Source: Candidatus Dojkabacteria bacterium (GTDB lineage Bacteria; Patescibacteriota; Dojkabacteria; J137). Taken from it: a DNA stretch of 64,000 bases. This document shows positions 1 to 61,825 of this stretch, in pieces. Position numbers and translations under genes: made by a program. The stretch spans positions 633,924 through 697,923 of the forward strand of contig AP024679.1 in the NCBI GenBank assembly GCA_025999215.1, read 5' to 3'. The notes beneath the pieces are model-generated. The model ran no database searches. It was not told where the DNA came from and worked only from the letters and a program-made list of their open reading frames with translations. Position 1 is the first letter of the stretch. Every line of letters begins with the position of its first letter.

Positions 1-478
1 GCCAATAATTTTTGTGGTTAATACTGCTGATCCTAACTCAAATTTAGTTCAAGAGATTAAAAAATTTGTAAAAGATAAAACCGTGTTACCTATGGATATT
101 AAACTTGAAGCAGATTTAGCTATGCTTGATGATCATGCAAAAAAGAGCTTTATGCAAGACTTGGGAATAAGTCAAACTGGCCTGGAAATTTTAACTAAGA
201 AAGCATATGATACTCTGAATTTAATATCTTTTTTTACACAAGGTCCAAAAGAAGTAAGGGCATGGACAATTAAAAGAGGAACTAACGCTCAACTTGCTTC
301 CGGAGTTATCCACACAGATTTTATTAAAAATTTTATTTCTGTTGAAGTTTGTAAATTTAGCGACTTTATTAATTATACAGGGTGGAACAATGCAAAGGAA
401 AATGGAAAGGTTAGGTATCAAGGCAGGGAATATATAGTTGAGGATGGTGATATTATGCTAATTCATCATAATTCATAA
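1..478 (+). CDS. ychF: Ribosome-binding ATPase YchF, C-terminal part (5' end lies outside the window)
   Basis: TGS/YchF C-terminal motifs (GPKEVRAWTIKRGTNAQLASGVIHTDF...); the ORF is open to the window edge. Confidence 0.8.
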   Translation, partial: PIIFVVNTADPNSNLVQEIKKFVKDKTVLPMDIKLEADLAMLDDHAKKSFMQDLGISQTGLEILTKKAYDTLNLISFFTQGPKEVRAWTIKRGTNAQLASGVIHTDFIKNFISVEVCKFSDFINYTGWNNAKENGKVRYQGREYIVEDGDIMLIHHNS

Positions 479-500
479 TGTCTGAATTTTGAAACATTAT

Positions 501-1001
501 TTACTGTTCTTTATTAATATTTTCATCATTACGTGGAAGAATATCACTGGCTTCTTCTATTAAGTCAGCACAAACTTCATCTAAAGTATTGCGAAAAGAT
601 TCTTCAAGTTCTGTTTCAAAATTAAAAAGATCTAAAATCTTGTCAACTAAAACTTCCATTCTGTTTCCTTCGCTTCTTACAAATGGAGCAAAAAAAGAGT
701 CATCATTAAAGCTAAATCTGCCTGGGTTATTTGCTATAAATATAATAAAAACTATTAGTTTTATTAACTTACTAGAAAAATAATCAGTTTCACTATCTAA
801 TTTCAACTCCAAATCTAAACGTTCTTTTGTTTTGCTTATTTTCTTTTTATCAAAAGCATCGAAAAAATTTTGAAACTCATTATCATTAGAGTATACTCTT
901 TCAGACTCCTTAAATAAATCCTCAAATAAATCCTCAAATGAATCATTTAAGCTTGGATTATTTACATTATTTTGCTCTTCAAAATTTGACATATAAATCA
1001 T
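501..1001 (-). CDS. Hypothetical acidic protein
   Basis: 166-aa ORF, very acidic (D/E-rich), no recognisable motif. Confidence 0.4.
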   Translation of the reverse strand: MIYMSNFEEQNNVNNPSLNDSFEDLFEDLFKESERVYSNDNEFQNFFDAFDKKKISKTKERLDLELKLDSETDYFSSKLIKLIVFIIFIANNPGRFSFNDDSFFAPFVRSEGNRMEVLVDKILDLFNFETELEESFRNTLDEVCADLIEEASDILPRNDENINKEQ

Positions 1002-1046
1002 TTATAAAAAGTTATGTTATTAGTTAGACTCTACTATTGTATCAAA

Positions 1047-3431
1047 TCAAACATTACTTTTCAACCTTTCTATCTCTTGAGATAGCATTTGAATATATAA
1101 AGCATAACCTATAGTATTTATATACCCATGTTGTTCTTTCCCTAACAAATTTCCAGCGCCTCTAATTTCAAGATCTTTGCTTGCTATGTTGTATCCAGAA
1201 CCCAATTCTTGATTATCAATAATTGTTTGAAGTCTCTCTAAATACTTATTGTTCGTACTTGAATTATAACCCCTACCAGAATAAAAAAGGTAGCAAAAAG
1301 CCTCCATATCTCCTCTACCTACTCTCCCTCTGAGTTGATAAAGTTGTGATAAGCCTAATTTTTCAGCTTTATCAATAATAATTGTATTGACATTTTGGTT
1401 ATCTAGTCCGTTTTCGATAATTGTTGTTGAAAGTAAAAGATCAAACTTTTTTGAATAGAATTCAAACATTACTTTATCTAAAACTTCAGGCTTCATTTGA
1501 CCATGAGCAACTCTCACTCTCAGTTTTGGTAAAAATTTTTTAAGTTTTTGTTCAATAGCGTAAATTGAATTAATATAATTGTGTACAAAATAAACTTGCC
1601 CACCTCTTTCAATTTCAAAATTGATTGCATTAATAATCTTATTCCAATCTTTCTTTATCAAAAAAGTTTTTATACTTTTTCTGTTTGGAGGTGGAGTTGT
1701 GATAATTGATAAATCTTGAATTGAACTTAACGCCATGCTTAAAGTTCGAGGAATTGGCGTAGCTGAAACTGAAAGTAAATGTGCTCCTAAATTTAATTTT
1801 TTAATTTTTTCTTTTTGCTTAACACCAAATTTTTGCTCTTCATCCACAACAATTAACCCCAAATTTTTAAAATCAACATCATTACTCAAAAGCCTATGTG
1901 TGCCTATAACTATATCAATTTCTCCGTTTTTTAACTTATTAATTACTTCTTTATTTTCATAATTATTTTTAAATCTTGATAAAAAATCAACTTTAAACCC
2001 AGTATTTTTAAACCTTTCAAAAAATGTTTTATAATGTTGTGCAACTAAAACTGTAGTAGGAGCTAAAATTAGGACTTGTACTCCATCAAAAACTACTCTG
2101 TAAGCAATTCTTAATATAACTTCAGTTTTTCCAAAACCTACATCTCCTATCAACAATCTATTCATTGGTCTTGAGGTAGAAATATCTTTTTCACATTCAA
2201 AAATAGCTTTTTTCTGATCATCGGTTAAATCAAATTGGAAATTATCCACAAATTTGTTATATTTTTCATCATCAACTATTGATATCGGCTTTGCTTTTGC
2301 TAGCTCTCGCTTAGCAAAATGTTCAATTAGCTCCATTGCAATTTTTCTTGTTTCAGCTTTTACTTTCTTTTTTAAATTTTTCCATTTTACTGTACCTAAG
2401 GTTGATAATTCAGGCTCTAAATCTGACTGCCCAATATATTTTGAAATTTTAGATAGTTGATGGATAGGTACATAAACTGTATCTCCATGTTTGTACTCTA
2501 TAACTATATATTCTTGTTGTGAATCATTTACAAATTGTTGTTCCAAACCTTTATACAATCCTACTCCATAATCTTCATGCACAACATAATCATTTATGTT
2601 TATTTTACCTTCAAACTTTTCAAGCAACTTCGATATATTTTTATTTTTTATGCCGTAATTTTTATTGAATATGCTTATTGTTCCAAAAGTTTCTCGCTCA
2701 CTAAGCATTACAATTTTGTTCATTGAATCAATGAAGCCTGCTTGTATATTTATTGGTTTCTTACTCTCAGCAAGCTTGATTGCATCATTTTCTATTTTGT
2801 ATCTTAAATTAAATTTTTTAAAAAATTTTTGGATTTCTTTTGGGATTTTATCTAAATTTAAATTAGTGTAAATTTTATAATTTTGAGAATTCCATTTTAT
2901 TAAATCTTTTTGCAACAAATCAATCCTGCCAAAATACAAAGCAGGTAAAGAAACTTTGGCGTCAATATATTCATTTTCAATAATTTGATTTGTAAAAATG
3001 ATATATTTTAAATCAGTATTATTATCCTGAATTTTAATGTGTGATAAATCAAATTGATCAGGTAATAAAATTAATCTATCTGTCTCTAGTAGTTTTTTAA
3101 AGTCAATGTTGTTAAGTAATTCTATAGATTCACATTCTTCACCCCAAAAATTAATTCTAACAGGGTTACTATAACCTTTGAGCCAAGCCGTTATTGTGTC
3201 TCCTTTTATTCCATATTCTCCTTCGCTATTAACTACTTCAACATATTTGTAGCTTAAGTTAAAAATGTTTTTTAATTTATTAAACATTAGACTTTTTTTA
3301 TCAATCACATTAATTTTTTCAAAAACTTTAATTATATCGGCACTGAAATATTCACTATAAACTAGACTCTCATCCTCAATAAAAAGAGGAATTAAATGTA
3401 ATGGAATTTTTATAATACTAAAATTTTTCAC
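1047..3431 (-). CDS. mfd: Transcription-repair coupling factor Mfd, short form (794 aa)
   Basis: Mfd-specific helicase motif I (LLIGDVGFGKTEV), RNAP-interaction-like segment (VVHEDYGVGLYKGL) and TRG-type C-terminus. About 190 N-terminal residues are missing relative to E. coli Mfd. Confidence 0.8.
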   Translation of the reverse strand: MKNFSIIKIPLHLIPLFIEDESLVYSEYFSADIIKVFEKINVIDKKSLMFNKLKNIFNLSYKYVEVVNSEGEYGIKGDTITAWLKGYSNPVRINFWGEECESIELLNNIDFKKLLETDRLILLPDQFDLSHIKIQDNNTDLKYIIFTNQIIENEYIDAKVSLPALYFGRIDLLQKDLIKWNSQNYKIYTNLNLDKIPKEIQKFFKKFNLRYKIENDAIKLAESKKPINIQAGFIDSMNKIVMLSERETFGTISIFNKNYGIKNKNISKLLEKFEGKININDYVVHEDYGVGLYKGLEQQFVNDSQQEYIVIEYKHGDTVYVPIHQLSKISKYIGQSDLEPELSTLGTVKWKNLKKKVKAETRKIAMELIEHFAKRELAKAKPISIVDDEKYNKFVDNFQFDLTDDQKKAIFECEKDISTSRPMNRLLIGDVGFGKTEVILRIAYRVVFDGVQVLILAPTTVLVAQHYKTFFERFKNTGFKVDFLSRFKNNYENKEVINKLKNGEIDIVIGTHRLLSNDVDFKNLGLIVVDEEQKFGVKQKEKIKKLNLGAHLLSVSATPIPRTLSMALSSIQDLSIITTPPPNRKSIKTFLIKKDWNKIINAINFEIERGGQVYFVHNYINSIYAIEQKLKKFLPKLRVRVAHGQMKPEVLDKVMFEFYSKKFDLLLSTTIIENGLDNQNVNTIIIDKAEKLGLSQLYQLRGRVGRGDMEAFCYLFYSGRGYNSSTNNKYLERLQTIIDNQELGSGYNIASKDLEIRGAGNLLGKEQHGYINTIGYALYIQMLSQEIERLKSNV

Positions 3432-3440
3432 TGGAGAATT

Positions 3441-6400
3441 TTAAATTATTTTTTTAAGCCATTGACCTGTATAGCTATTTTCACAATTCATCACATCTTC
3501 AACACTACCTTCAACTACAATTTCACCTCCTCTATCACCACCTTCCGGACCTAAATCAATTATCCAATCAGCAGTTTTAATTACATCTAAGTTATGTTCA
3601 ATCACCAAAACTGTGTTACCTTTTGCAACCAAACCATGAAGCACCAAAAGCAATTTCCTTACATCTTCAAAATGCAACCCAGTTGTAGGTTCATCTAAAA
3701 TATAGAATGTTTTACCTGTTGAACGCTTTGATAGTTCTGTTGCTAGTTTTACTCTTTGCGATTCACCACCTGATAGAGTTGTTGCACCTTGACCTAATCT
3801 GATATAACCCAATCCTACATCATTCAATGTTTTTAGCTTAGTTTTAATTTTAGGAATATTTTCAAAAAAGCTTAGTGCTTCATTTACCGTCATATCCAAA
3901 ACTTCAGAAATGTTTTTTCCTTTATAATCAATTTGTAAAGTCTCTCTGTTGTATCGCTTTCCGTTACACTCATCGCATTTAACGTAAACATCTGGCAAAA
4001 ATTGCATTGAAATTTGAATAACGCCTGCTCCTTGACATGCTTCACATCTACCTCCTTTTACATTGAAGCTAAACCTTCCCGGTTTGTAACCTCTTGCTCT
4101 TGCTTCTTTAGTTTGTGCAAAAATATTCCTAATTTCTGTGAAAATTCCCGTGTAAGTTGCTGGATTTGATCTTGGTGTTCTTCCGATTGGCGATTGATCA
4201 ATATCTATCACTTTATCAATGTGCTCAATTCCTCGTAATGTTCCAAATTTACCGAGTTGATTTGAATTACCATTTAACTCTTTTGCTAGTGCTTTGTAAA
4301 GAATTTCATTTACTAATGTAGATTTTCCAGATCCTGATACTCCTGTAACTGCTACAAATTTACCTAGAGGAAATTCACAATCAAATCCTTTGAGATTATT
4401 TTCTTGAACATTTGTAACAATTATTTTGTTGTTGTTTACTTTTCTAAAAGATTTTAAGCCTAATTGCTGTTTAACTTCTTTTTCTATTTCATTTTTTGAA
4501 ATTTGAAGTTTTTTTGATAAATATTTACCTGTTATTGAATTATCAACTTTTTTAATGCCTTCTACATCTCCTGCGTATACTACTTCACCTCCTTTTTCGC
4601 CAGCACCAGGACCTATATCAATAATATAATCAGCTCTATTTATAGTATCTTCATCATGTTCAACAACTATAACAGTGTTACCGATATCTCTTAAATTTTC
4701 TAAAGTTCTAATTAATCTTTCATTATCTCTTTGATGCAATCCAATTGAAGGCTCATCAAGCACATACAAAACTCCCGTTAATCCTGTACCTATTTGAGAA
4801 GCTAAACGAATTCTTTGAGATTCACCACCTGATAAAGTTTTGGCAGATCTACTAAGCGTTAAATATTCAAGACCAACAGCAAGCAAAAAGTCTAGGCGCG
4901 ATTCAATTTCTTTAAAAACTTGCTTTCCTATCACGAGTTCTTGATTTGATAATGAATCGTCGTCATTGATTTGTATGCCAAAAAGTTCTTGCATTGTTTG
5001 AGAAGTTTGTAACTTCGCCTTTCCTTGTTTTGTTTGTGATACCCAAAGCTTAGCTTGTTTAATAGACATATTAACAACATCCACAATGTTTAAACCATTT
5101 ATTGTAACACTTAGAGATTCTTTCTTGAGTCTATAGCCATTACATTCTGGGCAAACCTTTTCAAACATATATTGCTCAATTTCGCTCCTTACATACTCAG
5201 ATTCACTCTCTTGATATCGTCTCATTAAATTTGGAATCACACCTTCATATTTCAAACTAACTTTCTTCTTGTTTCTGTACGAATCTGTATACTCAATTTC
5301 AAAAGTTTTATCGGGTAGTCCAAACATCAAAATATCAAAATGTTTTTTACTTAACTCACCAATAGGCTTTTTAAGCGAAAAACCTTCTTTTTTAGCAACA
5401 TTATGAATTAATTTCATCATGTAAGAATTCTCATTATCTATTATTCTGTTCCATGGATAAATTCCACCTTCCATCACTGTCAATCGTGGATTGTAAACTA
5501 GAGACAGATCGATTTCTTTTATAAATCCCAAACCGCCGCACTTACTGCACGCACCATGAGGGGAATTGAATGAAAAAGAATGAGGTTCAATTTCTGGAAA
5601 AGATTCACCAGTAGTAGGATCAACTAATTTTTCAGAATAAAAAAGATCCCCATTTTCATTCGTTTTTAAAATAGATTTATAATTTTTAAAATCATTCAAA
5701 TGAACATATATTTCACCATTGCCATAACTTAAAGCTAGTTCAACAGAATCAGTTAACCTTTTTATAAAATTATCATCATCTTTTGAATCATTATTTAAAA
5801 CAAGCCTATCAATAATCAAATCAATATTGTGTTTTACATACCTTTCTAAAGTGATATCTTCTTCAAGCGAGTAAATTTGCCCATCCACTCTCACTCTAGC
5901 AAAACCTTGAGCTAAAAATCGTGTGAATAGTTCTTCATATGTGCCCTTTCGACTTTTAATAACCGGAGCAATAATCATGATTTTAAGCTTATCAAATTTT
6001 AGTTTTTGGGGTAATTCACAAATGCTATCTACAATTTGCTGTACTGTTTGTTTTTGCAATCGCTCACCAGTTTTGTGGCTTCTTGGGTGCCCCACTCTAG
6101 CAAATAAAAGTCTTAAATAGTCATAAATTTCTGTTACTGTTCCAACGGTGGATCGTGGATTGTGTCCTGTCGACTTTTGATCAATTGAAATTGCCGGTGA
6201 AAGTCCTTCAATCAAATCTACATCAGGTTTATCCATTAAACCTAAAAATTGCCTTGCATAAGACGATAATGACTCTACATACCGTCGTTGTCCTTCTGCA
6301 TAAATCGTATCAAACGCAAGTGATGACTTACCTGATCCTGATAAACCTGTGATAACTGTTAATTTATTTTTTGAAATATCTACATCTATGTTTTTTAGAT

Positions 6401-6443
6401 TGTGAGTTCGGGCTCCTCTTACTTTGATTTTTTCTATAGCCAT
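3441..6443 (-). CDS. uvrA: Excinuclease ABC subunit A
   Basis: 1000 aa with two ABC ATPase modules (GLSGSGKSSLAFDTIYAEGQRRYVESLS; second Walker A GVSGSGKSTL) and zinc-finger cysteines. Confidence 0.95.
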   Translation of the reverse strand: MAIEKIKVRGARTHNLKNIDVDISKNKLTVITGLSGSGKSSLAFDTIYAEGQRRYVESLSSYARQFLGLMDKPDVDLIEGLSPAISIDQKSTGHNPRSTVGTVTEIYDYLRLLFARVGHPRSHKTGERLQKQTVQQIVDSICELPQKLKFDKLKIMIIAPVIKSRKGTYEELFTRFLAQGFARVRVDGQIYSLEEDITLERYVKHNIDLIIDRLVLNNDSKDDDNFIKRLTDSVELALSYGNGEIYVHLNDFKNYKSILKTNENGDLFYSEKLVDPTTGESFPEIEPHSFSFNSPHGACSKCGGLGFIKEIDLSLVYNPRLTVMEGGIYPWNRIIDNENSYMMKLIHNVAKKEGFSLKKPIGELSKKHFDILMFGLPDKTFEIEYTDSYRNKKKVSLKYEGVIPNLMRRYQESESEYVRSEIEQYMFEKVCPECNGYRLKKESLSVTINGLNIVDVVNMSIKQAKLWVSQTKQGKAKLQTSQTMQELFGIQINDDDSLSNQELVIGKQVFKEIESRLDFLLAVGLEYLTLSRSAKTLSGGESQRIRLASQIGTGLTGVLYVLDEPSIGLHQRDNERLIRTLENLRDIGNTVIVVEHDEDTINRADYIIDIGPGAGEKGGEVVYAGDVEGIKKVDNSITGKYLSKKLQISKNEIEKEVKQQLGLKSFRKVNNNKIIVTNVQENNLKGFDCEFPLGKFVAVTGVSGSGKSTLVNEILYKALAKELNGNSNQLGKFGTLRGIEHIDKVIDIDQSPIGRTPRSNPATYTGIFTEIRNIFAQTKEARARGYKPGRFSFNVKGGRCEACQGAGVIQISMQFLPDVYVKCDECNGKRYNRETLQIDYKGKNISEVLDMTVNEALSFFENIPKIKTKLKTLNDVGLGYIRLGQGATTLSGGESQRVKLATELSKRSTGKTFYILDEPTTGLHFEDVRKLLLVLHGLVAKGNTVLVIEHNLDVIKTADWIIDLGPEGGDRGGEIVVEGSVEDVMNCENSYTGQWLKKII

Positions 6444-6558
6444 AATGTTTTTTTAAACGCTATCCAGTCATTATAACATTCTCTGTTAATATTTTTAAAA
6501 TTGTATAGCAAAATTTTTTATTAAAATTAAAATATTTTATAAAAAACTTCAAAAAGAC

Positions 6559-6587
6559 TTGAACTTTTTTTGAAAATGATGTAAAAT
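6559..6587 (+). promoter_or_regulatory. Sigma70-type promoter, TTGAAC-17-TAAAAT
   Basis: -35 at 6559-6564, 17-nt spacer, -10 at 6582-6587. No ORF downstream. Confidence 0.5.
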
Positions 6588-6593
6588 TGCTTA

Positions 6594-6665
6594 GTGGTAA
6601 CTCATGTGTATAGAACCATGTGTTGCCCCTTCCCTAAAACCCTTCAAGTTCCTTGAAGGGTTTTT
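6594..6665 (+). ncRNA. Candidate small RNA 1 (about 72 nt), ends in an intrinsic terminator
   Basis: Transcript predicted from the 6559-6587 promoter. Terminator: 9-bp stem CCCTTCAAG/CTTGAAGGG (6640-6660) followed by TTTTT. Confidence 0.35.
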
Positions 6666-7328
6666 ACTTTCTTATGTCAATACTTCACAAAAAAATTAAA
6701 ATGAGCAATTTAAAACATGTAAAAAAGTATGGTAAAATTTAGTTAATCGTACTTTAGAATCGGTGAAATAGTGCTAGGCGAAAGGCTAAATATAGATCAA
6801 GGCAGTAAAAGCCCCCCAACACCTCAACACCCATTCCATTATTCATAATTGATAAGTAATCTATAAAAAATTTGGTAGTATTTTTAGTACTTTTATTGAT
6901 AACTAAAAAATTTCGAAGTGTATTAGGATATATATTATATACTAATTTTCTTTGCAAACCCTAGAGCTTTTCATTTTAAAGCTCAAACTTTACAGATTAA
7001 TAAATTTTCACTAAAAAACTTTACATATTTAACAAATATTTTGTGTACCTGTTCAGGTGGGATAATGTTCCATGACTGAACGGCGATTTCCCACCTTTTA
7101 CTACAAAGTTAATATATTTTTCTAAATTTGAATATTGAAAATGTAAAATTAACTGTCGTGAGCGAACGGCTATTACTCTTTTAATTTTTCGAAAACTCCT
7201 TCTATCTATATTTTAAATTATAACAAAATTTAGTTTTTATAAGAAAAATAAAAAAGGCTTGTTTTTTGTTTAGTTTTATTATAAAATGACATAGGATGTT
7301 TTTTTCATTTTTGTATCCTTTTTTTATA

Positions 7329-10004: not shown

Positions 10005-10598
10005 GTGTTAGAATTTGAACAATCATTTAAGTTTTATTCAAAAGACATTGAATTAATCAGTGGTGATAGATTATTTAGTGAAATAAATAGATTTGTAAAT
10101 ATAAATTTAAAAATCATTAAAAAAATTTTAGATGTTGAAGAAAATGAAATTTCAATTAGATTGTGGCCTCATCCATGGAGCGCAGTAACTTTTAAAAAAC
10201 AAACATTTTGCATCTTTTTACCTAAAAATCTCATCAATATAAACCCAAATAAAATTTTCTATTTTACTTCTCAAGAAGAAATATTAATTTTCATTGTATT
10301 TATGCTTGCTCATGAACTTTATCATGTACGACAAGTTGTAAAATATCCAAGTTTTTTTGACAGAAACCATTTAGATATAAGCAAAAACTCCTTTTTGCGA
10401 TTTTACCTTAATCCAACAAATTTCTATAAAACATTTAACGGTAAAATTGAAACCTCAGCAAACCTTTTTGCAATGAAATATATCCAACAAATTCAAGCAA
10501 AAAACCTATTCGGCTTATCAATTCCTGCAAGTAAGTTTTTAGAAAGAAAATTTATTCTTAATTTTATTATACTTGCAATTAATCTTGTTGAATTTTGA
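10005..10598 (+). CDS. Hypothetical protein with HExxH motif, possibly an ImmA/IrrE-like zinc metallopeptidase
   Basis: 197 aa; motif FMLAHELYHVRQ resembles the LAHELGH motif of M78/ImmA-family peptidases. Confidence 0.35.
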   Translation: MLEFEQSFKFYSKDIELISGDRLFSEINRFVNINLKIIKKILDVEENEISIRLWPHPWSAVTFKKQTFCIFLPKNLININPNKIFYFTSQEEILIFIVFMLAHELYHVRQVVKYPSFFDRNHLDISKNSFLRFYLNPTNFYKTFNGKIETSANLFAMKYIQQIQAKNLFGLSIPASKFLERKFILNFIILAINLVEF

Positions 10599-10759
10599 GG
10601 ATTATTTTTGTTTTTATTTTAAAAAATATCTTGGAATTGAAATCTTAGTAAATTTATAAAATGTTACGAAAACATTTTTGAAGTTTTAAAGCTAGCGAAT
10701 ACCTGAAACAAATCTAACTTTTAATTTTATTTGCATATTTCGTCCTGGGTCAACGCGAT

Positions 10760-10840
10760 TTATAAGGGCATGGACTCATCAGTCACAGATCCAATATGAG
10801 ATATTTTAAGAGTGAATACAGTCATGGAGCCATAAGCCAA
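10760..10840 (-). pseudogene. Degenerate fragment resembling the tyrS N-terminal region (gene remnant)
   Basis: Reverse complement reads SMTVFTLKISHIGSVTDESMPL*, compare tyrS FEISGKPHIGSAVMSMAV. It shares the nucleotide string gatccaatatgag with tyrS at 9797-9810. Confidence 0.3.
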
Positions 10841-11170
10841 GCTAGGCATCAAAAAGACTGTGTTCACTTTTTTAAAAAATTTTTAATCTAGAGAGATATT
10901 AAAAGAAATGAACACGAGCGGGGATATTTCGTTTTCCTTCCACCTGCACCAATCTTTGTTAAAATCGTATAAGGTACATCGGCTTTACGGGCAGGTTCGT
11001 CTTGAGATAAACCAAGACCAGTTCTTAACTTTTTGATTCTTTCTTAATTTATTGTCTTGTCTATCTTCCATATTTTGATATCATAAAATTATTGATATCT
11101 TCTTCTTTCATTATTATGCTAACAAATATAATAAAGACAAGCAAATTTTTACAACTCAAAGATGAGAAAA

Positions 11171-11244
11171 AGCCCGCTTTTGGCCTGCATGCTCCGCACG
11201 TAAAAGTAAAGAATATTTGAAGGGAAAATCGGCTGGCGAGCCCT
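11171..11244 (+). repeat. Copy A of an approximately 73-bp direct repeat (about 96% identical to copy B at 15238-15310)
   Basis: agcccgctttTggcctgcatgctccgcacgtaaaagtaaagaatatttgaagggaaaatcggctggcgagcc; the two copies differ by one inserted T and one G/C change. Confidence 0.8.
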
Positions 11245-11313
11245 TTTAAATTCCACCCAGAATGCCAATTGGCAGAAAGGACTGGACGCTTTTCGAACTT
11301 TCCCCTGGTTTGA

Positions 11314-11684
11314 TCATATCAAAAATACTGATGACTTCATCAAGGATTTAAATTCCCTACTTAGCTTTGCCTTTTCCACCGGATATTTCTTATCGTTTAT
11401 ATCAATCTTCTCATCAATTATCTCCAATAGATCTACGCCTGCTTCTTTGCACAATAGAAGAAGATAAATTCCTACATCTGCAAGCTCTTGTCTGAATTCT
11501 GCAACCTTATCTGGATTCTATAGAACTTTTTTAGATTCGTCTAAAACCTTCCAAATAAAGTATTCAATAACCTCAGAAGCTTCAAACGATAAAGCAATTG
11601 CTAGATTTTAGGATTGTGAAACTGCTCCCGATCTCTATCTGTTCTGAATTTTTCTATCTTCTCTACAATTTGTTGAATGTTCAT
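11314..11684 (-). pseudogene. MazG-like nucleotide pyrophosphohydrolase pseudogene (frameshift plus internal stop)
   Basis: Reverse-strand translation MNIQQIVEKIEKFRTDRDREQFHNPK / [frameshift] NLAIALSFEASEVIEYFIWKVLDESKKVL*NPDKVAEFRQELADVGIYLLLLCKEAGVDLLEIIDEKIDINDKKYPVEKAKL... matches the MazG/YpjD NTP-PPase family. Reading is interrupted by a frameshift and a TAG. Confidence 0.6.
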
Positions 11685-11743
11685 TTTAGTAATTTAAAAG
11701 TTAAGTTTTATTAACTCGGAATTTTAAGTATTAATATAATTTT

Positions 11744-12589
11744 CTAGCTTTTGTCTACTAAAGATCTCAAAAAGACTTTAGAAGTCTTGCTATGTATTAG
11801 TCTTGTTGGTCCTGTGGCAATCAATCTAATCTGATCATTACCATTATAACTTCCTTGTAAACTCTTTGTTCTTGCCTCGGTATAATCATACTCTGGTGAA
11901 TTATCTGAACGCATACTAATATATGCATCCTTCTGAAAAGTAACTATAATTCCTCTTTTATCTTTCATAAAGTGATGAATAACTCTTTCCATCCTTCTTT
12001 GATCAAAGTACTCAACCTGCGATAAGGCTTTACTACCAAATAAACGTCTTAAGCCATTTACTCCTGCCCATGGTTCAACACTTGGTGTACTAGGCATTGA
12101 GAAGTATGAAGCAAATCCAAGTAAGAAAGGAGACTCATACCTACCAGACCATAAGATCTCTTTTCTTTCATGACTTTTATCTAAATTGCTTGCTCCTGAT
12201 GAATCTGGTAATATAGCTACTCCAGTTTCTCTTAGAACCTTCCATACTCTGTGTTCTCTGCCATCTCCCTCAAATGAGAATATTGCCTTTTCTTTTACAG
12301 AGTGGGGGGCAGGATTACCAAAAACTAGCAATAAAGGAGTTCTTGAATCTTGTAGATTTGGAACTAACGATTGTGAGTAGTAGCTAAGAGTATCTCCTTC
12401 TTTAAAAAAAACATATTGATTAGAATCATCAGACTGATAGAATTCATTCCATCTTGTTTCGAACTGAGCTCTTTCTTCTCCTGCTGAATATAAAGCATTT
12501 AAGTTAATGGAAATTTTTTCTATACCTTTTTCTACAAGTTCAATTGAGAAGTTGCCGTCATTAAATTGTTCAACTAATTTATCATCCAT
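11744..12589 (-). CDS. Hypothetical protein; weak resemblance to uracil-DNA glycosylase superfamily motif A (LLLVFGNPAPHS)
   Basis: 281-aa intact ORF. The GxNPxP-like motif is the only recognisable feature. Confidence 0.35.
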   Translation of the reverse strand: MDDKLVEQFNDGNFSIELVEKGIEKISINLNALYSAGEERAQFETRWNEFYQSDDSNQYVFFKEGDTLSYYSQSLVPNLQDSRTPLLLVFGNPAPHSVKEKAIFSFEGDGREHRVWKVLRETGVAILPDSSGASNLDKSHERKEILWSGRYESPFLLGFASYFSMPSTPSVEPWAGVNGLRRLFGSKALSQVEYFDQRRMERVIHHFMKDKRGIIVTFQKDAYISMRSDNSPEYDYTEARTKSLQGSYNGNDQIRLIATGPTRLIHSKTSKVFLRSLVDKS

Positions 12590-12768
12590 AAATTCTTATT
12601 TATATGATTTTAAAAGCTTATCTATTATGTTCATGATCTCTATTTCGTCGTTAATATCTAGCTTATATTGTATTTCTTTTCTGGAAATCTCATTTAAACT
12701 TTCTTTTATTTCATCTGTATTTAATTGGTCGATTCTAATAAGGTGTAACGACTTGGTGTTATTTACAA

Positions 12769-13929
12769 TTACATTTTTAAGTCAATTCTGATACTGATTC
12801 CGAAAATATAGGTTTGTACAATCTTAGGATTGAGCATTTTGACGCACATATCAATTACATGGCGAGGGGTGAAGTATTGGCCCTTTTCGCCTTTTGATGA
12901 CTTATTGACCAAGTATTCAAAGGCTTCGTCAATAATTTGCAGATTGGAATTGAAAAGTTTTATATCCTGCAAGCTGGAAACGCTGACGGAAAGATGAGAG
13001 GGTGAAAGTTGAATAAGGCTTCCTTCATCAAAAACGCCCGGCCACTTGGCCTTGGCTTCATCAAAAAGTTTTTGTATTTTCTTTTTAAGTTCTGACTCTG
13101 ATTGTCCGGAGTTTCTAAATTCTAAAACCCTGAAATTGGAATCATCTATTTTTGCCAAAACTTCTTTTACCTTGTCATAATCTCCGCGATCTTCTTGGCT
13201 TAATTTGTCTTCAAGATAAATTTCCAGACGCATTTTGTCTTTTTTGCTCTGCAATTCATCGTAAAGTTTGGTGAAAATTAGTTTAAAAACTTCTTCAAAA
13301 ACATCCACGCCAGCGTTTGCTAAAACTTCATCTTCCATTTCCTGAATAATGGTTTTGAACGATTTTCCCTCGTTTGGGATTTTGTCTTTGATGATTAAGT
13401 CTTTGAGGGTGAATCTTTCTTTTAAAATATCGGAAAGCGTCTGATCGGCTTTGGGAATGTCGGTAATGTCTTCAAAATAGTTCGGATCTTTGCGGTGGTA
13501 ATGACTGATTTGTCCGCCGTTGGTCCAAACTGCAATTGGCGCGCCGGTGGCGTTGGTGTAGGAGCGGAGCTGATTCTTTCCGTCTTGGAGTTTTGACTTT
13601 TTTACTTCAACGATAATGTATTCAACTGTCGGGCGGTCTTTGTCGAAAATAACAATATCGGCGGATTTTACCTGTCTTCCAAAATGGATAGCGTGTTCAA
13701 ATTTGATTCTTTGTTTTGGGTAGCCATATTCTTCAATGAGTTTCATGGCGTAAAGCTGGCGGACGACTTCTTCGGATTTCAAAACAATTTCTTTATCACG
13801 GATAGCGCAAACAACATACGGCTTGCCATTTTTGAAAGTTATTTTACTTTCTAATTCATCAACCAGCTTTTGGTCAAAAATAGAAAAGCTGTAATTTGAA
13901 TCTTTGATAATGTTTAAAATGTTTTTCAT
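12769..13929 (-). pseudogene. Truncated N6-adenine DNA methyltransferase (HsdM/type IIG-like) with HSDR_N-like N-terminal domain
   Basis: N-terminal HSDR_N-like segment (ADIVIFDKDRPTVEYIIVEVKK). MTase motif X (GQYFTPRHVIDMCVKMLNP) is followed immediately by a stop. The downstream DPACGSGGFL and NPPF/Y motifs are absent. Locally higher GC than the surrounding genome. Confidence 0.65.
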
Positions 13930-14015
13930 AGTTTTAACTTTATTAAATCATCAACACTAGCTTCAAGCTCTTCTGTAGTCTTGGCTAATTTTTCGTAATA
14001 TGGTTTTTGCATATT

Positions 14016-14924
14016 TTATTTATTATAAGTATAACTTTGTTTAATAAGCTCGAAAACCTGGTCAATTTCTTCTTCTTTTTCGAGTTTCACTTCATAATCA
14101 CCATTGCCCCAATGTCCAACCTTTTTCGGTTTTGCAAGATCGCGAGCAATGCCGTGAGGATCATTGAGCTCGCCACTTGGTACATTGAGAAAAATTTTGA
14201 GGCCATATTTTTTTACAACAACATCAACAAAATTCGTCGATAGCTTGTAGGCGATATATTTTGCTTTCGGCTCAACGATAATGGATTCATCAAGCGCAAC
14301 AATTTTTTCATTGATTGCCTCAAAAATTTTCTTGGCTTTTGGGCTGATTCCGCCTAGATGGTCTTCGAGGGTGTATATGACTTTTTCCTTGATTACCTTT
14401 TCTTTCTTTTTTTTGTCAAAAACTTTCGCGGTTGAGATACGCACTTTTTGTTGTGTTTCCGGTTCAACTAAAAGAATGTTGTTTTGGTAAATGCGGAATT
14501 TCAAAAGCTCAATTTTGATAGGGAGCAATTCAGCAGTATCTAAATCAAATTTATTGTAGCTTTCGGCAACGCAGATAACTCGGGGGGAGGCCCAATCAAT
14601 ATCAACATTCACTTTTGCTTTTTGCACTAAAACTTCAAAATCGGCTTTGTGGTCCAAAAGCCATCGAAGATATGAGAGTCCTTGATTGATCACATTATCG
14701 TTTTGGTTTCTTTTGTACTCGATGATTACTGGTGAGCCGTTCTTGTCAATGCCGAGAGAATCAATCCGTCCCCCGAAACTCGTTGAGTATTCGCTAGTGA
14801 GAAATGTGATGTTCAAAATCTCATTTAGATTTTTTTCAAAAATTTTCTGTATATCTCTTTCTAACCCAACTTTGATCGGAGGAATTTTTCTTACTTTGCC
14901 GTTTTGTATTAAAAATAAGGCCAT
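14016..14924 (-). CDS. NucS/PD-(D/E)xK-like nuclease domain protein with DUF5655-like C-terminus
   Basis: Motif GGRIDSLGIDKNGSPVIIEYKR matches the PD-(D/E)xK core of NucS/DUF91-type nucleases. Higher-GC gene inside the island. Confidence 0.5.
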   Translation of the reverse strand: MALFLIQNGKVRKIPPIKVGLERDIQKIFEKNLNEILNITFLTSEYSTSFGGRIDSLGIDKNGSPVIIEYKRNQNDNVINQGLSYLRWLLDHKADFEVLVQKAKVNVDIDWASPRVICVAESYNKFDLDTAELLPIKIELLKFRIYQNNILLVEPETQQKVRISTAKVFDKKKKEKVIKEKVIYTLEDHLGGISPKAKKIFEAINEKIVALDESIIVEPKAKYIAYKLSTNFVDVVVKKYGLKIFLNVPSGELNDPHGIARDLAKPKKVGHWGNGDYEVKLEKEEEIDQVFELIKQSYTYNK

Positions 14925-14928
14925 AGTT

Positions 14929-15183
14929 TTATTTCACTAAATCATCTAAAAAAACGCCAAGACCCTTAGCAACTTTCGTTATTGTCTGCAAAGAGGGATT
15001 TTGAATAACATCACTCTCAATTTTAACTAAAGTCGTATAGGGAATATCTGCCTTTTTTGCCAAAGCGTCCTGCGTAATTTCTTTCTTTTTACGCCATGAT
15101 TTGATTTTTTGGTCTATTGTTTTGACTCGATTCATTTTCTTTCTTCCATATAATACTAGTATAAAGTTATTGGCATTTAGCAA
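14929..15183 (-). CDS. XRE-family helix-turn-helix transcriptional regulator, candidate controller (C) protein of the adjacent nuclease/methylase genes
   Basis: 84 aa with HTH_XRE signature (ITQDALAKKADIPYTTLVKIESDVIQNPSLQTITKVAKGLG). Confidence 0.7.
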   Translation of the reverse strand: MLNANNFILVLYGRKKMNRVKTIDQKIKSWRKKKEITQDALAKKADIPYTTLVKIESDVIQNPSLQTITKVAKGLGVFLDDLVK

Positions 15184-15237
15184 TCATCAATATTATGATA
15201 ACAAGTATGCTGGGATCAATCAAATTAAAAATTCGGG

Positions 15238-15310
15238 AAGCCCGCTTTGGGCCTGCATGCTCCGCACGTAAAAGTAAAGAATATTTGAAGGGAAAATCGG
15301 CTGGCGAGCC
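15238..15310 (+). repeat. Copy B of the approximately 73-bp direct repeat, immediately 3' of tRNA-Ser(GGA)
   Basis: Near-identical to 11171-11244. Contains a GCCC-GCTTT-GGGC hairpin that would serve as the tRNA terminator on the minus strand. Confidence 0.8.
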
Positions 15311-15329
15311 AACAAAGACATTTCCTAAC

Positions 15330-15419
15330 TGGCGGAGAGGACAGGATTCGAACCTGCGGTTCCGTTTCCGGAACACTGTCTCTCCAAGACAGCGCTTTCG
15401 ACCACTCAGCCACCTCTCC
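15330..15419 (-). tRNA. tRNA-Ser (anticodon GGA), CCA encoded
   Basis: The reverse complement folds as a class II tRNA with a long variable arm. Anticodon loop TTGGAGA, T-loop GGTTCGAATCC, acceptor GGAGAGG/CCTCTCC, 3' GCCA. Confidence 0.9.
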
Positions 15420-61485: not shown

Positions 61486-61575
61486 GGAGAGGTGGCCGAG
61501 CGGTCTAAGGCACATGTCTCGAAAACATGAAGGGCAAAAAAGCCCTCGTGGGTTCGAATCCCACCCTCTCCGCCA
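61486..61575 (+). tRNA. tRNA-Ser (anticodon CGA), CCA encoded
   Basis: GGAGAGGTGGCCGAGCGGTCTAAGGC... with anticodon loop CTCGAAA, a long variable arm, T-loop GGTTCGAATCC and 3' GCCA. Confidence 0.9.
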
Positions 61576-61825
61576 ATTGGTATTCTGGGGGGAATTTAAA
61601 AGGGCACGCCAGCTGAGTTTCCCTTCAAATATTTTTACTTTGCTTGAAAAGTAAGAGAGCAAAAGCGGGTTTTTTCTCATCTTTGGCTTAAAAATTTGCT
61701 TGCCTTGAGTATTACTTAGTATAATGTTGACACATGTAAATATAAAAAATTGTAGTTTGCTATAACTAAAAATACTCACCCACAGGGGTGTTGAACGTTT
61801 CACTTGAGGAGTTAATAAAATAATT

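Follow-up and report, generated by a model that had tools for sequence, protein, structure and literature searches.

A probable remnant of an integrative island, with a truncated restriction-modification gene and an XRE-DUF5655 pair, beside tRNA-Ser(GGA) in Candidatus Dojkabacteria

Known systems and the locus beside tRNA-Ser(GGA)

Controller (C) protein-regulated Type II restriction-modification (R-M) operons, such as PvuII, Esp1396I, and AhdI, are among the described systems that most resemble a group of genes lying directly 3′ of the tRNA-Ser(GGA) gene in a genome of Candidatus Dojkabacteria. The window analyzed here is a stretch of 64,000 nucleotides (nt) of that genome (assembly GCA_025999215.1, contig AP024679.1, positions 633,924-697,923 of the forward strand), and the genes in question, which we call the island, are found within about 4 kb below the tRNA. 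As in the C-protein operons, a small XRE/HTH_3 gene comes first and is co-oriented with R-M genes. Unlike in those operons, a 302-amino-acid (aa) nuclease gene of the DUF5655 family is placed between the controller and the R-M genes, and the R-M system itself appears to be dead.

Other known systems resemble parts of the island. The R-M gene recalls the type IIB enzymes BcgI and BsaXI, in that its full-length homologs join an N-terminal PD-(D/E)xK nuclease to a gamma-class N6-adenine methylase and have an S-like gene behind them; unlike these, the window copy ends after motif X, at residue 369, and has neither the methylase core nor the S gene. By sequence, the family would be type IIB-like, two-sided cleavage being a biochemical property. 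The DUF5655 protein matches PDC-S18, whose anti-phage role is that of a database candidate (PADLOC-DB); the window protein is of the same length and keeps all of its conserved residues. However, PDC-S18 is listed as a single-gene candidate, whereas an XRE gene precedes it here and in 29 of 75 related loci (4-15 nt upstream), and R-M genes or a serine recombinase usually follow. These and later counts are drawn from the 80 best-scoring metagenome loci with DUF5655 relatives, some of them near-duplicates, and many use 75 of them. As for NucS/EndoMS, the window protein is without the NucS N-terminal DNA-binding domain and has a YdhG/YjbR/MotA-CTD-like C-terminal domain instead, and the NCBIfam NucS profile scores 23.9 bits against it (cutoff, 216), with only the catalytic domain aligning.

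PrrC and RloC are accessory genes embedded in type I R-M loci. Similarly, the DUF5655 nuclease gene is located inside or at the edge of many types of R-M operon, but it has no sequence or domain relationship to PrrC and RloC and outlasts the R-M system in the window; we found no evidence that R-M proteins hold DUF5655 in check. With the tRNA-targeting serine-recombinase islands, the window island shares its position directly 3′ of a tRNA and a distal repeat with a decayed tRNA 3′ end, and its relatives carry a recombinase abutting the tRNA. It differs from them in that its 73-nt repeat is downstream of the tRNA, not inside it, and in being without a recombinase.

We read the region as the degenerate remnant of a horizontally acquired integrative island, with a truncated R-M cargo and an independent XRE-DUF5655 head, and give this reading a probability of roughly 0.7. 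The island would belong to a widespread family found beside tRNA genes, often tRNA-Ser, and often with a large serine recombinase. The head of this family would be constant, an XRE regulator and then the highly conserved DUF5655 nuclease (PDC-S18), and the cargo behind it interchangeable, usually an R-M system. In the window, the cargo was probably a two-gene system, composed of an RM.BsaXI-related bifunctional nuclease-methylase (here, the RM gene) and an S subunit; a controller gene of its own, now reduced to its last ~22 codons, would have come with it. One deletion would then have taken the catalytic half of the methylase, the S gene, and ~104 codons from the start of a neighboring gene, fusing the two stumps. 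The neighboring mazG and a second copy of XRE are pseudogenes. The stump keeps a nuclease domain and is devoid of methylase and target-recognition parts, so the system would no longer methylate or restrict. The XRE-DUF5655 pair may still be expressed from the XRE promoter, kept by selection, and active as an independent nuclease module that does not depend on the methylation pattern and is related either to defense or to maintenance of the element. A gene with a uracil-DNA-glycosylase (UDG) fold and its neighbors might be older or native genes caught in the deletion.

The features of the island are, in window coordinates and with the GC content at third codon positions abbreviated as GC3, helix-turn-helix as HTH, and open reading frame as ORF:

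15330-15419 (minus): tRNA-Ser(GGA), the anchor of the island (ARAGORN; Rfam tRNA, 58 bits)
15238-15310: copy A of the 73-nt direct repeat, 20 nt beyond the tRNA, with two terminator-like hairpins (repeat search)
15136-15237 (minus): region upstream of XRE, with promoter-like hexamers at 15192-15223 and the palindrome ATACTAGTAT at 15153-15162
14929-15135 (minus): intact XRE/HTH_3 regulator, 68 aa, controller-protein-like (Pfam, PADLOC)
14016-14924 (minus): intact DUF5655/PDC-S18 protein, 302 aa (Pfam, PADLOC)
13938-14003 (minus): putative 3′ end (~22 codons) of a second controller (HTH) gene (aligned with locus L104 at its HTH-to-RM junction)
12769-13929 (minus): truncated bifunctional R-M gene, a 386-aa ORF with HSDR_N_2 and motif X and a 17-residue unrelated tail
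12599-12830 (minus): what is left of an unrelated 181-aa gene, its 3′ third (residues ~105-181) lying in two frames (tblastn E 3.7e-11)
11744-12589 (minus): intact 281-aa gene with the UDG superfamily fold and host-like GC3
~11340-11684 (minus): mazG-like pseudogene (tblastn E 1e-11 and three-frame translation)
11271-11299 (minus): decayed tRNA-Ser 3′ end, with the T-loop GTTCGAA ... TCCAGTCCTTTCTGCCA (aligned with the 3′ ends of tRNA-Ser(GGA) and tRNA-Ser(CGA))
11170-11242: direct repeat copy B, 73 nt (repeat search)
10951-11058 (minus): frameshifted, truncated second XRE remnant behind repeat copy B (tblastn and translation)

A preliminary description of this DNA had already reported that the genes after tRNA-Ser(GGA) are co-oriented and that the nuclease and methylase genes are GC-richer than their flanks. 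Both observations stand. From the tRNA, at 15330-15419 on the minus strand, down to ~10900, all genes are on the minus strand, and the GC content of the DUF5655 gene and the RM stump is 0.37-0.38, compared to 0.30 for the flanks and 0.31 for the whole window. GC3 is 0.37 for DUF5655, 0.41 for the RM stump, and 0.30 for XRE, and, among the host-like genes, 0.23 for the UDG-like gene and 0.18-0.22 for TyrRS, UvrA, and Mfd. The 4-kb unit would be a mosaic of recent and older material, because GC3 splits its foreign part from the host-like genes. The genes flanking the island (Mfd, UvrA, DnaE, and MutS) are bacterial. The same description took the whole for a decaying, foreign, C-protein-controlled R-M module; its foreign GC3, its decay, and its XRE head agree with that, but the DUF5655 protein does not appear to be its restriction enzyme. 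It also missed the 73-nt repeat with its decayed tRNA 3′ end, the second XRE remnant, the nuclease domain in the "methylase" ORF, and the fused remnant of the 181-aa gene. Relatives of the tRNA-Ser region were sought by scanning a genome collection with TyrRS, the sole hit being the TyrRS of an archaeon (Woesearchaeota) at 41% identity, and exact-sequence look-ups matched only the same island. As an island it would be ordinary: a foreign R-M system being deleted from a small genome of the Candidate Phyla Radiation (CPR).

Repeats and tRNA-Ser genes

Repeat copies A and B are 99% identical and lie 4068 bp apart, and three copies of the repeat occur in the window, compared to 0 expected. The distal copy, B, is adjoined by the decayed tRNA 3′ end. 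Judged by their sequences, the repeat and the decayed tRNA end are consistent with attachment scars. The third copy, C (61576-61700, with its core at 61602-61633 and 3 mismatches), comes after tRNA-Ser(CGA) (61486-61575, plus strand), and an apparently intact type I HsdM-like ORF starts at ~61812 (plus strand) and runs past the end of the window. Thus, both tRNA-Ser genes of the window precede the same repeat and R-M genes. Copy B has the spacer and promoter flanks of copy C and the 73-nt core of copy A.

The same arrangement might have come about with no integrative element at all, through local duplication and unequal recombination between the paralogous regions downstream of the tRNA-Ser genes, with defense genes gathering at a hotspot. 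Each of the three repeats follows a tRNA-Ser or its remnant, so they could be paralogous tRNA-Ser flanks and not attachment-site scars, and the composite copy B is in keeping with such an exchange. Further points weigh against an acquired element or against parts of our reconstruction. The window has no recombinase or recombinase remnant, and the 4068-bp unit is not one clean insertion; the host-like UDG-like gene is inside it. We infer from the present sequence both the order of events, with its "empty site," and the expression and activity of XRE and DUF5655. The best-scoring related loci include near-duplicates, and counts and the Fisher test given below overstate their independence. Finally, in view of a few homologs that end similarly, there is some small probability that the short RM gene is a recurrent or a functional form.

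The related loci speak for an element, and we regard a purely local origin as unlikely. These loci pair the same head and a tRNA with a large serine recombinase whose 3′ end runs into the tRNA gene, and tRNA 3′ ends are duplicated in L027 and L044. In the window, head and cargo have a clearly foreign GC3. A large serine recombinase is present in 25 of the 75 loci; where at least 2 kb of upstream sequence is available, it is found upstream of XRE in 13 of 33, mostly divergent from it. In L029 (3449-5033) and L072 (3561-5198), the 3′ end of the recombinase gene overlaps tRNA-Ser on the opposite strand. Upstream divergent recombinases are also found in L014, L030, L032, L036, L048, L050, L055, L063, L065, L071, L092, and L093, and only the last ~60 recombinase codons are left in L097 and L099. 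A same-strand upstream tRNA is present in 15 of 60 loci and is tRNA-Ser in 7 of those; L031 and L040 repeat the order of the window, tRNA-Ser(GGA), XRE, and DUF5655. Short direct repeats of the tRNA-Ser 3′ end occur 100-250 nt downstream of the tRNA in L027 (344-367) and L044 (1114-1131), upstream of the XRE-DUF5655 module, suggesting repeated integration or excision at these tRNAs.

Three other ideas about the repeat were considered and set aside. A 4067-nt Logan contig (L015) is identical to the island, with a length close to the repeat spacing; it does not speak for a circular or excised form, since its ends fall where a k=31 unitig must break in the 61-nt exact repeat. The repeat is not a likely structured RNA (folding z, 0.22; no match to an Rfam family), nor a likely remnant of a recombinase gene, its likeness to serine-recombinase C-termini being confined to the antisense tRNA.

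The truncated bifunctional R-M gene

The ORF at 12769-13929 was first described as a methylase stopping right after motif X. Motifs I and IV are indeed absent, but the gene is half of a bifunctional nuclease-methylase. Its Pfam matches are to HSDR_N_2, a PD-(D/E)xK nuclease domain (E 2e-27), and to N6_Mtase, of which it covers no more than the first ~45 positions, and it is 94-95% identical to proteins that have ~675 aa when complete, with HSDR_N_2, N6_Mtase, and Eco57I domains. Homologs on longer contigs typically have 654-676 aa and all methylase motifs, and motifs X, I, and IV are complete in the full-length homologs P0005 and P0023. End-to-end alignment with such proteins, the possibility that would have made the ORF a naturally short protein, is not seen; 369 of ~675 residues align. 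The homology ends at window position 12823, 7 residues short of motif I (DPAAGSCGF); in the homologs, "CVKMLNPK" is followed by motif I 7 residues on, and NPPF comes near residue 497. What is left in the stump is the HSDR_N_2 nuclease with D91, E108, and K110, a helical region, and methylase motif X, and then the 17-residue unrelated tail. Because the RM protein carries the HSDR_N_2 domain, the restriction nuclease of this system would be inside the truncated gene. The stump has presumably lost methylation and target recognition, and R-M function would be extinct.

The intact relatives indicate what the cargo may have looked like. Among solved structures, the type IIB enzyme RM.BsaXI is nearest to full-length P0005 by sequence (E 2e-17), and an S-like gene of 466-477 aa comes after the RM gene in L001-L005 and L104. 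The intact order in L104 is HTH, RM, and S, without DUF5655. NCBIfam also shows a likeness to MAD2 of MADS, the methylation-associated defense system (the fragment scores 123 bits and full-length P0005 scores 296 bits; cutoff, 720) and a distant one to MAD5, far under the cutoff; unlike MAD2, the intact relatives of the window RM gene are two-gene (M and S) loci with variable inserts. A variable extra gene lies between RM and S at 2013-2834 in L001, 3587-4522 in L104, and 10033-10152 in L002; the kinds seen are a Trypsin_2-like gene, an Abi_C-like gene, and a 39-aa ORF. In the 64-kb window, tblastn found no trace of the remaining 306 residues of the RM protein, none of the S gene save a stray match far from the island (E 0.9), and no remnant of the inserted Abi_C and Trypsin_2 genes.

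The 3′ side of the stump bears the scar. Between the end of RM homology and the next gene are 230 nt that code, in two frames, for residues ~105-181 of a 181-aa protein, and the first of these matches overlaps the last homologous RM codons, so that the RM gene and the 181-aa gene are fused at ~12823-12830. A single deletion would leave just this, having taken half of the methylase, all of the S gene, and ~104 codons from the start of the neighbor. On the 5′ side, a stretch of 66 nt before the RM start can be aligned with the final 22 codons of the L104 HTH gene; the tblastn match of this controller remnant (13938-14003) is 41% over 22 aa and is weak (E 0.12), in the position where it would be expected. 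The junction ...GATGATTT..AAACTATGAAAAA is common to the window and L104, and the conserved junction AAACTATG comes just before the RM start. Since an HTH 3′ remnant and a junction precede the RM start, the cargo probably once had its own controller gene.

We considered whether the 386-aa ORF might instead encode a protein that is short by nature and functional as an HSDR_N_2 nuclease domain, perhaps in concert with DUF5655. Its 369 homologous codons are free of stops, the catalytic residues named above are kept, its identity to relatives is high, and four other homologs (P0107, 387 aa; P0080, 385 aa; P0007, 360 aa; and P0053, 378 aa) have unrelated tails and end at most ~25 residues from the truncation point of the window. 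Nevertheless, we find this quite improbable. The typical length of homologs on longer contigs is that of the whole enzyme, and the window tail is read from the remnant of another gene, which makes the fusion look accidental. The short form of P0080 looks like an assembly-end effect, its contig (L108) ending 47 nt past the stop codon. Moreover, the high GC3 points to a recent arrival, so a stop-free frame needs no selection.

The XRE-DUF5655 pair and the neighboring genes

The DUF5655 protein has a DUF5655 domain in its C-terminal half (Pfam E 1e-12) and is weakly NucS_C-like in its N-terminal half; against PADLOC PDC-S18, it aligns end to end (residues 2-299, E 3e-94). The domain order is an N-terminal NucS-like PD-(D/E)xK nuclease, a Lys-rich linker, and the C-terminal YdhG/YjbR/MotA-CTD-like domain. 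All residues invariant over 31 homologs are kept, including D55, E69, and K71, so no inactivating substitutions are seen there, in agreement with the intact nuclease of the preliminary description. Among the 3103 homologs detected, the best 120 share 67-91% identity with the window protein, and most have 299-305 aa. At the DNA level, window positions 14014-14946 are 73-85% similar to ~30 loci (e.g., L024-L033); the similarity takes in nothing but the DUF5655 ORF and ~20-30 nt at the 3′ end of XRE, and it goes no further than the stop codon of DUF5655. Between loci, XRE and cargo diverge far more than DUF5655 does. The DUF5655 gene behaves as a discrete conserved block. A literature search found no published study of DUF5655 function or of PDC-S18. 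A phage origin was considered and set aside; no DUF5655 relative was found in IMG/VR.

What follows DUF5655 in the related loci varies. The commonest next gene is an R-M component, of unrelated kinds, with large serine recombinases as the alternative. The 57 co-directional downstream genes included methylases of the N6_N4 (9), D12 (7), EcoRI (4), and N6_Mtase (3) kinds, as well as EcoRV (5) and serine recombinases (5); second genes included AlwI, DpnI, type III Res, and EcoRI endonucleases. The cargoes comprise RadC-Dam with AlwI, EcoRV with Dam, EcoRI M/R, type III Mod with Res, a DpnI cassette, and N6_Mtase with S, and DUF5655 copies 87-92% identical to that of the window precede at least six different cargo types. 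In Patescibacteria loci, DUF5655 adjoins MazG among housekeeping genes, without a methylase. DUF5655 cannot depend on one cognate methylation, because near-identical copies adjoin methylases of different specificity. It had been thought unusual for an intact nuclease gene to survive without its methylase. That concern falls away: DUF5655 elsewhere precedes unrelated R-M genes or stands methylase free, and since those R-M cargoes have endonucleases of their own, an intact DUF5655 without a methylase is not paradoxical.

The presence of XRE and the nature of the cargo go together. R-M genes are downstream in 19 of 24 loci with XRE, compared to 7 of 35 without it (Fisher P 1e-5; the loci are not independent), and three of the five seeming exceptions, with XRE and no R-M genes, proved to have R-M genes or remnants. 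In L028 (2136-3610), tRNA-Ala, XRE, and a DUF5655 gene 90% identical to that of the window are followed by the remnant of an EcoRI-type methylase, only its first ~90 codons, spread over three frames; this locus is an independent parallel, with the head kept and the cargo decaying. A recombinase directly follows DUF5655 in L046, L055, L063, L075, and L077, and a ParB_N protein and then a recombinase follow it in L060, L065, and L085; in these eight loci, the gaps are 0-13 nt, and none has an XRE gene. Two annotated plasmids from cultured bacteria, one of Acinetobacter and one of Staphylococcus, have distant copies of DUF5655 (34% identical) within type I hsd operons:

L106, Acinetobacter pittii plasmid NZ_CP077239, 4566-8820: hsdS, DUF5655, hsdR
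L107, Staphylococcus nepalensis pSNJS101, 1-6676: hsdR, S, M, S, DUF5655, recombinase

The idea of a single C-R-M operon made up of XRE, the DUF5655 nuclease, and the methylase, with the nuclease as an orphaned restriction enzyme outliving its methylase, fits three adjacent, co-oriented genes with XRE at the head, the intact PD-(D/E)xK motif of DUF5655, and a methylase without catalytic motifs, but it is very improbable indeed, given that the truncated gene has a nuclease domain of its own and a family that works with an S subunit, that the same RM family is directly behind HTH without DUF5655 in L104, that a second-controller remnant lies between DUF5655 and the RM gene, and that DUF5655 proteins at least 87% identical precede R-M genes of different specificity with their own endonucleases, others being methylase free. 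The DUF5655 protein appears to be a separate, very conserved accessory gene and not the cognate restriction enzyme. An "orphan nuclease beside a dead methylase" can mislead when the methylase gene carries the nuclease.

The XRE gene (14929-15135) encodes 68 aa from its ATG and 84 aa from an upstream TTG, and the 68-aa call is also made in L015. Its C-protein-like character, recognized in the preliminary description, is upheld by matches to Pfam HTH_3 (E 2e-12) and PADLOC "Control_protein" (E 1.8e-9), and it is 48% identical to the HTH protein encoded directly before the intact RM gene in L104. As for the palindromic C-box that might be expected upstream, the perfect 10-bp palindrome at 15153-15162 is not above chance, with equal arms in 52% of shuffles (P ~0.5), and the half-sites ACTAT/ATAGT, enriched 8-fold upstream of homologs, are absent from the window copy. 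The promoter-like hexamers (15192-15223) are, singly, no better than chance. XRE and DUF5655, both intact, are presumably co-transcribed. The second XRE remnant (10951-11058) is frameshifted and 50% identical to the intact XRE over 36 aa (tblastn E 1e-5). A 21-nt inverted repeat with 1 mismatch joins 10067-10087 (plus strand) and 14928-14948 (minus strand); a second match arose in 0 of 100 window shuffles. One arm is the XRE 3′ end/junction TAGATGATTTAGTGAAATAAA, and the other is within a 197-aa ORF (10005-10598, plus strand) that has a HELYH motif and no Pfam match.

DUF5655 is among the most conserved genes of these islands, with a controller gene on one side and R-M systems of types I, II, IIB, IIM, and III on the other, and it also adjoins serine recombinases. 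From its architecture (a nuclease with a possible DNA-binding domain), its position in the operon, and its persistence beyond the loss of the cargo, we would take it for a self-sufficient nuclease module with a link to R-M-carrying elements and their biology. Should it be functionally coupled to the cargo, it would be an overlooked component of R-M biology and R-M mobility. More tentatively, and as a possibility we would not bet on, XRE and DUF5655 may be the chassis of widespread, undescribed serine-recombinase elements with interchangeable R-M cassettes, inserting beside tRNA genes, especially tRNA-Ser, across phyla that include CPR bacteria, with DUF5655 as a functional third component. One can envision DUF5655 as a guard upon loss or inhibition of R-M, as an establishment factor, or as an agent of cassette exchange at the junction of the XRE 3′ end and AAACTATG. 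Were this so, the survival of DUF5655 after the death of the cargo would reflect a function of its own.

Toward the distal end of the island, the mazG-like pseudogene was correctly recognized at the outset; it has one frameshift near 11607 and one in-frame TAG near 11520 (query, the MazG protein of L006/L007; tblastn E 1e-11). The tyrS 5′ fragment reported next to it is not supported. A tblastn search at E ≤10 finds nothing in 10600-11330, and Smith-Waterman comparison with shuffles gave P 0.11 for the HIGS-like and P 0.03 for the ADWHSW-like motif, uncorrected for six tests. A weak Rfam Hammerhead_3 match at 10732-10807 (minus strand), with CUGAUGA and GAAA boxes, is probably due to chance; it scores 25 bits (E 0.056), below the gathering score of 48.5, and stem I has no room.

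Lastly, the 281-aa gene was described as an orphan ORF. It has no match in Pfam, NCBIfam, or PDB sequences, but it is a real, conserved gene with a confident UDG superfamily alpha/beta fold. The protein is identical to KatS3mg085_623 of a Candidatus Dojkabacteria metagenome-assembled genome (NCBI) and has 89 homologs at 33-49% identity and 410 representative clusters among 1.84 billion proteins. Unlike the known members of the superfamily (MUG/TDG, families 4 and 5, and UdgX), it has an extra N-terminal sheet of ~75 residues and no family sequence match. G91, N92, A94, and S97 are invariant in the family (a GNPA..S motif), and we take them to sit where MUG/TDG have G-I-N-P-G. The 181-aa gene has no Pfam or NCBIfam match even at E 5, and its product might conceivably have a fold like that of nucleoside deoxyribosyltransferases; it precedes the 281-aa homolog in two CPR-like genomes (L017 and L021). 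In other genomes, a CYTH gene, a 181- to 187-aa gene, and then the 281-aa homolog follow one another in housekeeping surroundings. The 281-aa gene is probably not defense cargo; it represents a small UDG-fold family.

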